Below are positions 24,304 to 31,133 of a stretch of 64,000 nucleotides of DNA, piece by piece (position 1 is the stretch's first letter; every line of letters begins with the position of its first letter). Location of the stretch: contig WGNI01000011.1 in the NCBI GenBank assembly GCA_016124655.1, positions 64,196 through 128,195 of the forward strand. Direction: 5' to 3'. The notes under the pieces were generated by a model that was not told the DNA's origin, did not search any database, and worked only from the letters and a program-made list of their open reading frames with translations. This DNA comes from Alphaproteobacteria bacterium (lineage in GTDB: Bacteria; Pseudomonadota; Alphaproteobacteria; Caulobacterales; Aquidulcibacteraceae). Both the position numbers and the translations under genes were made by a program.

Positions 24304-25502
24304 GCGTCCATGAGCGCGCGACGCTTCTGGAACAAATCGCCGCGTCGGTAGGCCGCTTCAACCTTGTCACCGACAACGTGAGCCAACGCCGCCTCAGCCA
24401 CTTCGCGCGGGAAATTGGTCTTTTCCGCAGCCCAGTCGCGGAATGTGGAGCGGAAACCGTGAACCGTTTCGGCGCGCTGCATCCGGCGCAGAAGCACGGC
24501 CATCGTCGCCTGCGAGATCATTGCACCTTTGCGCATGTCGCTCGGAAAGATCAAATCGGAAGGCTCAGGATTGCCCGCCGCGTCATGGCGTTGTTTCAAC
24601 ACTGCAAGCGCAGCCTTAGAGAGTGGAACGCGATGCGTCCGGCCACCTTTCATGCGCTCAGCCGCGACGGTCCACAGCGCATTCTTGAAATCAATCTCAC
24701 CCCACGTCGCGCCAGCGGCCTCGCCGTACCGCGCCGCCGTAAGGATCAAAAACCGCAGACAGTCGGCACCAGCGCCGGTGCGATGCGAGAGCGCATCATA
24801 CAGCGCAGGCATTTGGTCGATGGGCACGGCACGATGATGCTGGACCGGCGCGAGTTTCGCACGGGAGGGAAGCGCCTTCTGCAAATGTCCACGCCACCGC
24901 GCAGGGTTGTCGCCGGTGCGATGGCCGCGCACCGCAGCCCAATCCAAAATCGTTTCGATGCGCCCGCGCAGGCGTGACGCCGTTTCCGTCTTGGTCGTCC
25001 AGATCGGATCGAGCACCCGCATAACCAAATCTTGGCTCACGTCGGCGACCGGAACGCCGCCCATGACCGGATAAGCGTAGGTAACGAGCGTGCTGCGCCA
25101 TTGCGCGCGGTGCTTGTCATTGCGCCAAGAGCCTTCATGCGCCGCGATGTAGGCTTCCGCGCACTCTTTAAACGTGAGCTGCGGCGTGCGTTCGGCTTTC
25201 GCCTCCTTCCGCGCCTTTCGGCGGGAGTCGATGGGGTCAGTGCCCGCCTTGGCGAGTTTGCGCTGAGCGAGGGCAGCGTCGCGCGCGTCGCCAAGTTCGA
25301 CCAGATCGGCGGAGCCAAGGCCCATTTCACGGCGGCGGCCATCGGCGGCGGTGTAGCGCACGATCCAAGACCGGCGCACGGCTCCGCCACGACCGATAGC
25401 CACCTGCAAGAACAGGCCGCCTCCGTCCGCATAAAGGCCGGGAGCCTTGGCCGCCGCTACCGCGCGGGCGGTTAGTTTATGGACGCCTCTCGCCATGCCC
25501 AA
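24258..25502 (-). CDS. int: Tyrosine-type site-specific integrase (P4-type, with DUF4102 N-terminal arm-binding domain)
   Basis: The catalytic R...HxxR...Y residues are present (HGFRSTFRDWA, AAYRRGD). It lies directly beside the 3' end of tRNA-Ser. Confidence 0.85.
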   Translation of the reverse strand: MGMARGVHKLTARAVAAAKAPGLYADGGGLFLQVAIGRGGAVRRSWIVRYTAADGRRREMGLGSADLVELGDARDAALAQRKLAKAGTDPIDSRRKARKEAKAERTPQLTFKECAEAYIAAHEGSWRNDKHRAQWRSTLVTYAYPVMGGVPVADVSQDLVMRVLDPIWTTKTETASRLRGRIETILDWAAVRGHRTGDNPARWRGHLQKALPSRAKLAPVQHHRAVPIDQMPALYDALSHRTGAGADCLRFLILTAARYGEAAGATWGEIDFKNALWTVAAERMKGGRTHRVPLSKAALAVLKQRHDAAGNPEPSDLIFPSDMRKGAMISQATMAVLLRRMQRAETVHGFRSTFRDWAAEKTNFPREVAEAALAHVVGDKVEAAYRRGDLFQKRRALMDAWSAFCASKVRERSA

Positions 25503-25690: not shown

Positions 25691-25780
25691 TGGCGGAGAG
25701 GGAGGGATTCGAACCCTCGATACCCGTGAAGGTATTCCGGTTTTCGAGACCGGCGCGATCGACCACTCCGCCACCTCTCC
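25691..25780 (-). tRNA. tRNA-Ser (anticodon CGA), type II with a long variable arm
   Basis: A minus-strand cloverleaf (GGAGAGGTGGCGGAGTGG...CTCGAAA...GGGTTCGAATCCCTCCCTCTCCGCCA). The anticodon loop CUCGAAA gives anticodon CGA. The 3' end encodes CCA. Confidence 0.8.
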
Positions 25781-25846: not shown

Positions 25847-28800
25847 CTAGGCGGCGCGGCGTGCGGCGAAGCGACCGCCATCGAGGGCGACCACCCGGCC
25901 ATACTTGGCCAGCGTGGTCAGCACCTCGGCAATGCGCTTTTGGCGCGCCTCGCTGGTCTTGCCCTTGAAGAGGCGCGCCAGGGCCGCCGCGTCGAGCGGC
26001 TGGCCGTGCGCGGCCAACGCAGCCTCGATGGCGAGCGGCTGCTCGTAGCGATCCTTCGGAAACGCGGGCAGCGCGGCCGTGAGTGGTTCTTCGGCCTCGG
26101 CGAAATCTAGATCGCCGGTTCGCGGCGCAGGCGCCGTCTTGGCGAAGCGCGGGATCTGATACTCCGGCCGCAGCCAGCGAACAAAGCCTTGGGCTTCTTC
26201 CCTGGCGGGCTCGGTATTGAGCGCGACGAGGCGTTCAAGAATTTGTTCGTCGCTGAGATCGGCGGGCCAGCCATAGGCTTCCGCGGTCGCCGCATCGATC
26301 TGATTGTGCAAGTCCTTCAGCACCAGCACGAGCCCGCGCGTCTTCACGTCCTCTTCCGCTGCGCTGAGCGTCGCGCCCGCTTTGACCTTTTCCAGTACGT
26401 TGTAGAGGCCTGTCAGCGTGAGATCGGAATGTTCGGCCTGCACGCGCTTGCGCGTGGCGTCGAGTTCTTCGCCAAGCGCGCGCAGCTTGGCTTTGAGCGG
26501 CTCCGGCGGATCGGGGAAGGGGAAGGGATCGAAGCAGGTTGTTTTGACATAGACCGGCCTGTCCTCGAGCAATCCGCCGACATGAGATGTCCAGGCAAGG
26601 TGTGGCTTCGACGAGAGAATAGCTAAGTGTGCTCCGTCTCCGTTCGCGATCACAATGAGCTTGTTGTCCGGAACGATTTCCGCTTCGAGAAACTGAAATG
26701 TGCGGTGTTTCGAAGTTTCGATCGTCGCGATGTAGCGCGGCAATCCTTCAAGGGCAGGACGCAGGTCCCGCCGTGGCTCGCCAAAGACCCACCAATTGGT
26801 TTTGTAGCTCTCGCGATTGTTTTGATCGCGCTCCGGCTTCACCCGCGCGAGGACGTGTTGATACACTTCCGGAAATCGCTGGCGCGCTCCTCCGCGCTCA
26901 ACCCGAAAAGATCGATCACCATAACATCGCGCGAATGGCCAGTGAGATCGCGGCCGTTGCGATAGGGGCGGATGTGGCGCTCAAGCCCGGCGCGATTGCC
27001 CAAGCCCAGAAGCGCCGCTTCCGCAGGCGTCACGATGAAGCCGGCTCCCATCAATTGAACGCCCCGAGAGCAAAGGCCGCGACCCGCGTTCAACGGTTGC
27101 GTACTCGTCAGGTCGATTCCAACACTCAAATCCGCATTGATGCGCCCCATCGAAAGCTTGAAGTCAATTTTCGGCTCATCCGTATCGATGTCGCGTTCGG
27201 AGACCGCCTCCATCAGCCGCCCGAATGTCGGTTCCGCCTGCGCGACGCTCATGGCGATGCGCACGGCGGCGCTGTCTTTGGTCGCCTTGGTCCAGGGTTG
27301 ATCCGGAATCGCGAACACCAGGCAGAGCGGATTCTTGGCGGCGAGGTGGCGCTCGATCACGCGGCGCTGAAACACCTGGCTGATCGAATTGGTGGTGACG
27401 AGCCCGAACCGGCGCAACGCGGTTTGGTCGCGGCGCAAAACGTCCGCCGCGCGATCCCACCAATACATCACGTAATCGGCGCTCTCATTCATGTGCGGAT
27501 GCGCGGCCCACAGCGCTTCGGCATAGCCGGGCTCACTGCGCGAGCGAATATCCTTGCCGCCGATAAACGGCGGATTGCCGACGATGAACTCGGCTTCCGG
27601 CCAGGCGGGGCGGCGGGGATTGGGGTAGTGCTCGGTGCGAACTGCTCCCCCGTTCACGGGGGAGCTGTCAGGCTGCGAAGCAGGCTGACTGAGGGGGCTC
27701 GCCTGCTCACTCCCCCCTCCGGTCGCTGCGCGACCACCGCCCCCGTGAACGGGGGAGGAGTTGGTCTGCACCGCCGGCACAGGAAACCCATCCCAGGTCA
27801 ACACGGCGTCATAGCCCTCGCGCTTGCCGAAATTGATGTTCTCGAACGCGCGCAGGATCGGCTCTTCGGGATGCGCCGTCGTATTGCGATAGTGCCATTG
27901 CAGATAGCCGATCCACACCACGAGTTCAGCGATGGCGGCGGCGCGCGGATTCAGCTCAAGGCCCAGAAATAAATGCGGGTCGACCGTGAGGTTCTTGAGC
28001 GCAAGCAGGCCTTGTTCGTCGCCCAGCTTGGTCAGCGTCTCCAGCACTTCGCCTTCGAGCTGCTTCATCAGTTCGAGCGCGACGTAAAGAAAATTGCCCG
28101 TGCCGCAAGCCGGATCGAGCACGCGCGTGTGCGTCAGCTGATCGTGGAACGCGCGGACGATGGCGATCGCCTTGCCGTCTTCTCCTTCGTCCTTGGCGAT
28201 TTCCGCCTTGGTCAACGCCGCTTCCCAATCGGCCCGCAACGGCTCCATGACGGTGACTTCGACGAGGCGTTGCACATAGGCGCGCGGCGTGTAGTGAGCG
28301 CCCAGTTTCTTGCGTTCCGCTGGATCCAGCGCTTGCTCCAACAGCGTGCCGAAGATAGCCGGGTCGACTTCCCGCCAGTCGGCCTTCGCCGCGCGAAGCA
28401 AGACGCCGATCTCTTCCTTTTTCAGTTGAAAGGCCGTGGTGTTCTTGAAGAGGCCGCCATTGAAGTGCCGCACGCGCGCTTCAATCACATGGCTGAACTC
28501 GACGCCCTTTTCCATGTCGCTCCAGAGCTGCTTCAAGCGCAGGGTGAACGTCTCGGGATTGTCGACGCACTTTCGAAGCAGGTCACGAAAACTCTCTTTC
28601 GGCAAAAGCCCAGTGTCTTCCGCGAACATCGTGAAGAGGCACCGCATCAGGAAATGCGCGACATCTTCCGCGTGATTTCCGCGGTCTTCCAGCGCCTTGC
28701 TGACCTCCGCCAGATATCCTGCGATCTCTCGCGTAACGCGGACCGCTTTCTTCGCCGGATCGAGACCATGTGGATCCGTCCAGATCGCTTTAAGGAGGTC

Positions 28801-29358
28801 GCGCGTTCTTTCGTTGCGTAAGTCTTCCAGAAAGAGTCGATATCCATTGCGATCGGGAAACTGCGTGTAGGCGCGCCCTGTGCCGGTGAAGTCGGCGTAC
28901 AATTCGAAACAATGCCCAACATCGCAGACGATGATGAAAGGCGGCGCCGTGTGGTTGGAGTCGAGCAGGAAGACGTAGCCTTCCGCCTGCTTGCGCGCAT
29001 TGCGCATCATGACGTCCCAGCCGCGTTGCGCTGTGCGCTCGCCCTGCGGCGATTCATTGAACAGCGCCATTTGGCCGGGGAGGGCGTTCTTGCTGCCCGG
29101 GAGGCGGGATTGTTTGGCCTCGAGGATGAAGCAGTTGCGCTTATAGATGTCGATGCGCTTGGGGTTGGTCGCGTCGGCGCTTTCGCGCGGCCTTACAGGG
29201 CGTTCGAAGGTATAGTCTCCCCCGTCGCCGCCGACCGCCGCATCGGGGCGGTCGACCGCGATCACATCGCAGAGTTCGTACAGGAAACCGACATAGTTCG
29301 CCCGCTCGGCGCCATGGCTCGATTTCCACTTGGCGATGAATGTCTCGATATCCGTCAC
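25847..29358 (-). pseudogene. MmeI-family type IIL restriction-modification enzyme (N-terminal PD-ExK nuclease plus gamma-class N6-adenine methyltransferase plus TRD), split by a frameshift near 26860-26875
   Basis: The 839-aa and 339-aa ORFs overlap at 26839-26866 in different frames, and together they align colinearly with MmeI. Shared motifs are D...EAK, AHYTP, DPACGTGNFL (motif I), NPPF (motif IV), and the C-terminal FDPFPFP...GLYN. Confidence 0.65.
27645..27758. repeat. In-frame 114-bp palindromic insertion inside the RM gene
   Basis: Two hairpin-forming units (ctcccccgttcacgggggag and cccccgtgaacgggggag) in inverted orientation flank further palindromes. The segment encodes a low-complexity peptide (SSPVHGGGGRAATGGG...SSPVNGG) just before the NPPF motif. 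Confidence 0.5.
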
Positions 29359-30984: not shown

Positions 30985-31058
30985 GGTGATGTAGCTCAAT
31001 GGTAGAGCGTCCGGCACGCGCCGGAAGGTAGAGGGTTCGATACCCTTCATCTCCTCCA
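30985..31058 (+). tRNA. tRNA-like gene with a non-canonical anticodon arm; identity unresolved (tRNA-Gly(CCC)-like D and T arms)
   Basis: It has a GTAGCTCAATGGTAGAGC D-arm, a GAGGGTTCGATACCCTT T-arm, and a CCA end. The anticodon stem TCCGG/CCGGA encloses only a 6-nt loop (CACGCG), and the acceptor stem has one T-T mismatch. Confidence 0.45.
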
Positions 31059-31133
31059 AACGACTAGCTCAGGTGGGTAGAGCACAAGACTGCTAATCTT
31101 GCTGTCGGAGGTTCGATTCCTCTGTCGTTGACC
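31059..31133 (+). tRNA. tRNA-like gene with class I (short variable arm) structure but a Ser-type anticodon loop CUGCUAA (anticodon GCU)
   Basis: It has a TAGCTCAGGTGGGTAGAGC D-arm, anticodon stem CAAGA/TCTTG, T-arm GGAGGTTCGATTCCTCT, and acceptor 3' strand GTCGTTG-A-CC with no encoded terminal A. Its 5' end abuts the previous tRNA, so nt 31058 would have to be shared. Confidence 0.45.

Follow-up and report, generated by a model that had tools for sequence, protein, structure and literature searches.

How does a palindromic repeat come to lie inside the catalytic domain of an enzyme, and has the enzyme put it to use? The question is raised by a 64,000-nucleotide stretch of contig WGNI01000011.1 (assembly GCA_016124655.1, from an alphaproteobacterium of the Aquidulcibacteraceae), referred to here as the window, in which a Type IIL restriction-modification (RM) gene of the MmeI family carries a palindromic element at 27640-27762. 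In our assessment this is, with high probability, a dispersed palindromic doublet that inserted in frame and has been carried as a tolerated passenger, the gene having been frameshifted later.

The inserted segment and its palindromic structure

The element lies in the first of the two open reading frames (ORFs) into which the gene is now divided, an 839-residue frame on the minus strand (26839..29358) with the Pfam domains MmeI_N, MmeI_hel and MmeI_Mtase, comprising an N-terminal nuclease, a helicase-spacer and an N6-adenine methyltransferase. Translation and alignment with 119 homologues place the inserted codons, 38 in number, at S534-G571 (SSPVHGGGGRAATGGGSEQASPLSQPASQPDSSPVNGG; 27646..27759, minus strand). 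The segment ends 23 residues before catalytic motif IV, NPPF (residues 595-598; 27565..27576, minus strand), whose columns N595, P596, P597 and F598 are invariant.

Segment S534-G571 is an insertion. Measured from LTWDG to GNPPF in the window sequence and the 119 others, this part of the protein is 31-38 residues long in 116 of 120 sequences and 74 residues long in the window; there are four baseline lengths, 37 (106 sequences), 38 (four), 33 (five) and 31 (one). A syntenic orthologue (P0002) in a Hyphomonadaceae metagenome-assembled genome (MAG; bins.64) has no insert and reads PKFQNGVESYPN at this position. It has the gene order Band_7, GNAT, L27, L21, MmeI in common with the window, and its genome contains doublets of the same kind elsewhere (L054, L058).

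The loop consensus among the homologues, P-x-V-x-E-KDG-KRVETYPN, resembles a beta-hairpin with a DG turn, and S534-G571 is placed at that turn; within the methyltransferase domain this loop (VxE-KDG-KRVE) follows the motif III region and precedes the NPPF of motif IV. In an AlphaFold model computed with 60 close homologues, residues 530-574 have a predicted local distance difference test score (pLDDT) below 50 and no secondary structure, with short strands at 529-531 and 575-577 on either side; residues 500-526 are also of low confidence, and the mean pLDDT is 69.

A preliminary description of this DNA, made from its letters alone, had proposed a 38-residue Gly/Ser/Pro-rich insert upstream of NPPF, and both the segment and its nature as an insertion were confirmed by the alignment. 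It had also asked whether the insert falls in a surface loop. The model agrees as far as an unstructured segment between strands is concerned, and from it we infer surface exposure only provisionally. The sequences and inverted copies named in that description are all present within 27640-27762. Its 114-bp span, 27645-27758, is indeed a multiple of three, but its borders have moved: comparison with the repeat family extends the element to 27640-27762, and the codon register is 27646-27759. Of the inner palindromes, ggtcgctgcgcgacc (27721-27735) is a perfect 6-bp stem, whereas tcaggctgcgaagcaggctga (27668-27688) proved imperfect, mismatched at one central position, and contains CAGGCTG as a direct repeat as well.

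The element, to which no strand is assigned as a whole, consists of two inverted modules joined tail to tail, each a full-length match to a covariance model of the family (R1, described below). Module A (27640..27714, minus strand; 53.6 bits, E = 1.5e-11) contains hairpin 1 (GCTCCCCCG TTCA CGGGGGAGC, 27644-27665), an imperfect hairpin 2 (27667-27689) and a G-box (TGAGGGGGC, 27690-27698), and its subtype is that of L021:4128-4194, L067 and L080. Module B (27696..27762, plus strand; 52.0 bits, E = 3.7e-11) contains a C-box (CCCCCCTCC, 27712-27720), a hairpin 2 with a perfect 6-bp stem (GGTCGC TGC GCGACC, 27721-27735) and hairpin 1 (27737-27758); it is identical to L021:4216-4261 at 46 of 47 nt.

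The outer arms of the doublet (27640-27667 and 27735-27762), each 28 nt long and together 89% complementary, are terminal inverted repeats such as occur in MITEs, small transposable elements with inverted repeats. Their cores are the 16-mer CCCCCGTTCACGGGGG (27647-27662) and its inverted partner CCCCCGTGAACGGGGG (27740-27755), which give four matches (two sites, both strands) against 0.06 expected from dinucleotide-preserving shuffles of the window. The 123-nt element has a predicted folding energy of -50.7 kcal/mol as DNA (z = -8.6) and of -83.9 kcal/mol as RNA (z = -7.1), with none of 200 shuffles as stable in either case, and in the RNA the outer stem pairs almost perfectly over ~22 bp. Reading frames +0 and -0 are open and the other four contain stops, leaving one open phase per strand.

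A dispersed repeat family and the nuclease genes between its modules

The window element is a member of a GC-rich family of palindromic repeats that is dispersed over many genomes. Scanning one genome per species with the 17-mer CCCCCGTGAACGGGGGA, the only part required for a match, we found at least 120 loci. Among the matches listed, most have the whole module (GCCCCCTCC, a hairpin, and ACCT-CCCCCG TGAA CGGGGG-AGG); they are rich in Hyphomonadaceae, Caulobacterales, Maricaulaceae, Rhizomicrobium, Phenylobacterium, Brevundimonas and Rhizobiales, and include Xanthomonadales, Dehalococcoidia, Fimbriimonadales and one spirochaete. The family module thus consists of a C5 box, a variable covarying hairpin (hairpin 2) and the hairpin CCTCCCCCG-TGAA-CGGGGGAGG (hairpin 1).

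R1 was built from 92 modules, 90 of them copies from other genomes and two the window's own halves. It recognizes 86 modules in 39 loci, mostly as (-)/(+) pairs like that of the window, so the inverted doublet is the family norm. A perfect hairpin 2 stem of at least 5 bp is found in 66% of modules versus 2.4% of shuffles, and with 47 distinct stem sequences in the 92 modules, pairing is kept while sequence varies. One doublet in a Hyphomonadaceae genome (L021:4128-4265) has termini and inner hairpins nearly identical to those of the window element, and related genomes contain two to three doublets per 8 kb (L021, L098). The suggestion that the element is a repeat of the repetitive extragenic palindromic (REP) or MITE type is therefore well founded: both halves match R1 at 52-54 bits (E about 1e-11), their architecture is the norm of the family, and the syntenic orthologue is empty.

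Family copies are mostly intergenic, although long open frames cross 10 of 47 element sites. At two of these a Pfam-confirmed protein extends on both sides of the element. One doublet lies in frame in a NadB/Sdh-type flavoprotein of Maricaulis salignorans, where it separates FAD_binding_2 from the C-terminal domain (L064:6659-6782), and the other is in frame in an E2 acyltransferase, in the linker that joins the lipoyl domain to the E3-binding domain (L087:1465-1618).

Three parts of the module covary by lineage (alignment A2; e.g., L062:6223-6289, L103:7690-7756 and L054:1064-1130), namely the bases after the C5 box (TCC, TTT, ATCC), the 5' extension of hairpin 1 (CCT, TTT, CTT) and its 3' extension (AGG, AAA, AAG). 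The C-box is a mirror image, not a complement, of the hairpin arm. Pairing with the G-box of the partner module and a triplex-type contact are candidate explanations. As to described RNA families, Rfam at a permissive threshold returned generic long-hairpin models only, all far short of their gathering thresholds (the best at 25 bits against 168), and the element is not one of them.

One further ORF spanning an element is a DUF559 gene with modules on its flanks. By tblastn, 943 kb of fetched loci contain eight DUF559 genes, six of which, including one in Dehalococcoidia, have modules on both sides within ~110 nt, (-) to the left and (+) to the right, just as the gene-less doublets are arranged. 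In a set of 120 DUF559 homologues for which protein similarity was the sole criterion, hairpin 1 is translated at the ORF ends of 38 (e.g., SSPVHGG, SPASGGG, LPRKRGR and PPPLRG). Three additional loci, picked among homologues that lack peptide ends of this kind, show the same bracketing in every case, bringing the total to nine of 11 loci examined (L076:474-947, L118:4704-5172, L040:4332-4811, L062:6591-7150, L050:7364-7837, L121:155-735, L128:1401-1941, L129:1411-1924 and L130:1409-1989). The DUF559 gene of L050 is degraded, and in L076 and L129 the cassette has the same location, with a thiolase gene on one side and a fadB-like gene on the other.

These observations suggest that the doublet is a gene-less, non-autonomous form of the DUF559 cassette. 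To our knowledge DUF559 is not a known transposase and has no known transposition chemistry, and we found no paper in the literature on DUF559 genes flanked by repeats. It is possible, and we propose it tentatively as somewhat less than an even chance, that the modules are the terminal inverted repeats of an undescribed cross-phylum selfish DUF559/Vsr-like cassette, with gene-less doublets mobilised or maintained in trans. If this hypothesis is correct, the family would resemble the REPtron/REPIN system but have a PD-(D/E)XK nuclease in the place of the RAYT, which might explain why the hairpins stay intact even inside coding sequence. DUF559, bracketed in both Alphaproteobacteria and Dehalococcoidia, is a concrete candidate gene for the mobility of a repeat family. 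A homing endonuclease of a group I intron is among the members of the Vsr/DUF559 group (PMC3424549), and Di Nocera et al. (PMC3733652) point out that a dedicated transposase is lacking for many REP families.

Retention in a gene under selection

A second carrier, P0014 (locus L001), lies in a different chromosomal context and has an LTWDG-GNPPF segment of 84 residues. Its insert shares codon position and orientation with that of the window, with an identical 12-nt right junction (GGAGCAGTTCGC) and module types that match side by side (GGTCGC-type 5', CAGTCA-type 3'); the centre differs by 30 nt, in frame. Over 639 codons the two host genes have a ratio of nonsynonymous to synonymous substitutions (dN/dS) of 0.11 at a dS of 1.0, which indicates that purifying selection acted on them over most of their divergence; the simplest view is that the insert was already there. 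The insert is retained in a gene under selection. That it was tolerated, as the preliminary description had supposed, is borne out by this ratio and by a second, homologous insert that has diverged by in-frame indels only. A metagenome scan for more carriers with a degenerate pattern of the element-gene junction gave no matches, and a protein search with the 48-residue insert peptide gave two candidates, none significant, by means of a word index that misses low-complexity peptides.

The RM gene of the window is no longer a single frame. Its target recognition domain (TRD) and C-terminal part lie in a second ORF in another reading frame (25847..26866, minus strand; Pfam MmeI_TRD), and tblastn with P0002 places a single junction, between the methyltransferase and TRD parts, at about 26884..26887 (minus strand): frame -3 covers residues 1-783 of P0002, and frame -2 covers residues 785-1123, which correspond to 26884-25868 with 82% identity. 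The homologues are single proteins with a full length of ~1135 residues; in the window all four MmeI Pfam domains, motif I and NPPF are present, with the TRD in the second frame instead of in one polypeptide. The site is not homopolymeric; in a three-frame translation it reads SAEE|RASDF versus ...VRxxFPEVYQH in homologues, and an independent Logan contig has the identical sequence, including the frameshift. Both parts are still ~81% identical to P0002, the closest intact homologue, so either the break is recent or the gene works as two pieces. Probably the gene is now a pseudogene, and recently so, the alternatives being an assembly error or a functional split. A tRNA-Ser(CGA) gene (25691-25780) lies 67 bp downstream of it. 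Farther on, ARAGORN calls a 94-nt tRNA-Ile(tat) at 25373-25466 that Rfam does not confirm, and at 30985-31133 a tRNA with an undetermined anticodon directly abuts a tRNA-Ser(GCT).

The history that best fits these data would begin with a REPIN/MITE-like doublet of two inverted modules inserting into a loop of the methyltransferase domain. Given an open phase and a length that is a multiple of three, it would have added a 38-residue, probably disordered, Gly/Ser/Pro-rich loop and left the gene unbroken. The gene would then have evolved on under purifying selection with its insert, the peptide being a tolerated passenger and not a new functional part, before a frameshift in the TRD region of the window copy made it, probably, a pseudogene. 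The DUF559 nuclease of the module-flanked cassette may supply the mobility function in trans.

Several points weigh against this account. No target-site duplication is definable at the element borders; the flanks, AACT and AGTT, are inverted and not direct, and the empty orthologous site has another loop length, which blurs the exact borders. Both carriers of this insert type are now broken, and no intact gene with the exact insert was found; the L001 gene is frameshifted in a C12 run in the methyltransferase domain (L001:11955-11985), for which either slipped-strand phase variation or an assembly error in the homopolymer may account. In a neighbour-joining tree the empty P0002 groups with the window and not with P0014. 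The exposure of the loop is read from a structure model of low overall confidence. With R1, the 64-kb window contains no family module besides the element itself, and neither there nor in 22 kb around the L001 gene is there a second module or a DUF559 gene. DUF559 genes could instead home into pre-existing doublets, and no result here shows DUF559 proteins moving modules.

The grouping in the tree speaks for a rival reading, in which related elements entered a targeted hot spot twice, once in the window and once in L001; the argument from dN/dS for long tolerance would then be weaker. The loop does receive repeats recurrently: inserts occur in four of the 120 homologues and are of at least three kinds. 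P0008 (1144 residues, intact) has 15 extra residues in the same loop, derived from a CTCTCCCCCGAGAGGGGGAGAGGGCAGGGTGAGGGG-type motif that recurs in L098; it has GAGGGGGGAG and an EHYPN flank in common with the window type, of which it might be a deletion derivative, but it is not recognized by R1 and matches another repeat in L098. P0111 (1286 residues, intact; Consotaella aegiceratis, L126:2100-2700) has 151 extra residues in the loop, made up of two copies of a 118-nt unit from another repeat family (...MVSLSNHEG...ALRQAQDEG...) and four tandem PQDEGGGG-type repeats, and the intergenic DNA nearby contains at least nine further occurrences of parts of this unit. The MmeI genes of P0008 (L003) and P0004 (L125) agree at ~90% of positions for the most part, with identity falling to ~50% in the TRD and to ~80% in the vicinity of the insert site, a pattern that on sequence comparison is a recombination mosaic with a swapped specificity domain.

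Such mosaicism of the host genes would also fit separate insertions, as would the differences between window and L001 in their hairpin 2 stems and left junctions. Against this, both inserts have the same codon phase, orientation, heterodimer composition and 12-nt right junction, and their modules have diverged nearly as much as the surrounding gene. Moreover, the three-way identities of window, P0002 and P0014 (86, 84 and 84%) do not settle the branching order, leaving the tree undecided. We therefore consider independent insertion unlikely, and a single ancestral insertion the simpler reading of the two carriers.

Somewhat less probable still is exaptation, which the preliminary description had offered beside tolerance: the insert would be a selected functional loop, or its mRNA or DNA hairpins would tune RM expression, for example as an RNase III or translation-pausing site. 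Several observations speak for it. All five stem-loops are still predicted in the diverged L001 insert (z = -5.1), the alignment shows two compensatory double changes in right hairpin 2 between window and L001 (C-G to A-T and T-A to C-G), the right module has ~81% nucleotide identity by count from the alignment though synonymous divergence of the host is saturated (dS ~1), and the outer RNA stem is the near-perfect ~22-bp duplex noted above. The persistence of the L001 stem-loops is unexplained. However, module ends are conserved throughout the family, and their conservation does not have to stem from any function within the RM gene. The insert peptide is identical between window and P0014 at only 23 of 40 positions, with a 10-residue gap, versus 83% identity in the rest of the protein; a peptide that evolves this fast and is predicted to be disordered (pLDDT below 50, no secondary structure) argues against exaptation. 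The syntenic orthologue and 116 of 120 homologues do without any insert, unrelated repeats occupy the same loop in other homologues, and the same element is found in linkers of unrelated proteins. Exaptation was accordingly the part of the preliminary description that was not supported.

A local low-complexity expansion or an assembly artefact without any mobile element, for which one could cite the low-complexity peptide and the lack of another copy in the 64-kb window, is scarcely credible in view of full-length matches (E about 1e-11) to a model derived almost wholly from other genomes, near-identical 46-nt stretches in a Hyphomonadaceae MAG, the identical independent Logan contig and the homologous insert in L001.

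Comparison with known repeat systems

The RM gene itself compares closely with MmeI (PDB 5HR4; PMC4833311). It matches the MmeI structure with E = 2.6e-29 and has the same domain order and the motifs DPACGTGNFL and NPPF followed by the TRD. The segment before NPPF is 43 residues long in MmeI and, in the window clade, 65 without and 102 with the insert. A loop that has been filled by three different kinds of repeat offers a permissive site for engineering enzymes of the MmeI family.

In-frame insertion of palindromes is a known route to new protein loops, and the window case is a new example of it, not a new principle. Three papers (PMC3733652, PMC3184786, PMC2229807) establish such insertions for the RPEs of Rickettsia and for intragenic GTAG/CGTC REPs and REP dimers, often in genes of DNA metabolism. 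The window provides a clean example in that an empty syntenic orthologue and a diverged second carrier date the insert to a dS of ~1 under purifying selection. What it adds is this dated, selected retention, a recurrently used loop and the DUF559 lead.

RPEs (Ogata et al. 2000; Claverie & Ogata 2003), as cited in PMC2229807 and PMC3184786, are dispersed in-frame palindromes that add a peptide at a permissive position and leave the protein intact. The likeness extends to size, a palindrome of ~100-150 bp in frame in ORFs corresponding here to 123 bp and 38 codons and to the flavoprotein and acyltransferase cases (L064, L087). RPEs are AT-rich and restricted to Rickettsia, whereas the window family is GC-rich, has C5/G5 hairpins, spans several classes and phyla and appears linked to a DUF559 nuclease gene. 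The RPE peptides given in the supplement of PMC3733652 (e.g., SFPRKRES) are unrelated to those of the window family.

The CcrM-associated intergenic repeats (CIRs) of Caulobacter and other alphaproteobacteria (Chen & Shapiro 2003) are described in PMC2229807 as structured, ~110 bp long and conserved between species. That text gives them a conserved GANTC (CcrM) site, stops in all six frames and a location that is never intragenic. By contrast, the window element has no GANTC within 27640-27762 and two open frames and is intragenic; in its family, GANTC occurs in only five of 92 modules, and three cases are intragenic.

Among intragenic REPs, a minority lie in ORFs, where they encode 20-30 residues or up to 43-82, and different REPs occur at about the same site in recB of two Xanthomonas species (Di Nocera et al. 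2013, PMC3733652). Like the GTAG/CGTC REPs of that study, the window family consists of short GC-rich hairpins that are mostly inverted dimers and mostly intergenic. Unlike them, its module is bipartite, with two hairpins and a C5 box. CGTC families have stems that start with A-T pairs and CCA tails (PMC3733652), both of which the window module lacks. Membership among the CGTC REPs was rejected, CGTC being present in a subset of modules only, paired within the hairpin 2 stem, and the stems not starting with A-T; nor does alignment A2 of the modules contain an unpaired GTAG tag.

REPINs and REPtrons provide a further parallel. As expected of a REP/REPIN repeat, the GC-rich palindrome recurs at at least 120 loci and forms an inverted doublet with a short spacer that folds into one long hairpin. 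In both systems the gene-less inverted doublet has a rarer counterpart that flanks a small nuclease-type gene (PMC8049555, PMC3733652); in REPtrons this gene is a RAYT, an IS200/IS605-type tyrosine transposase, whereas in the window family it encodes a DUF559/Vsr-like PD-(D/E)XK nuclease. The window element behaves like an RPE or a REP dimer but lies outside those sequence families.

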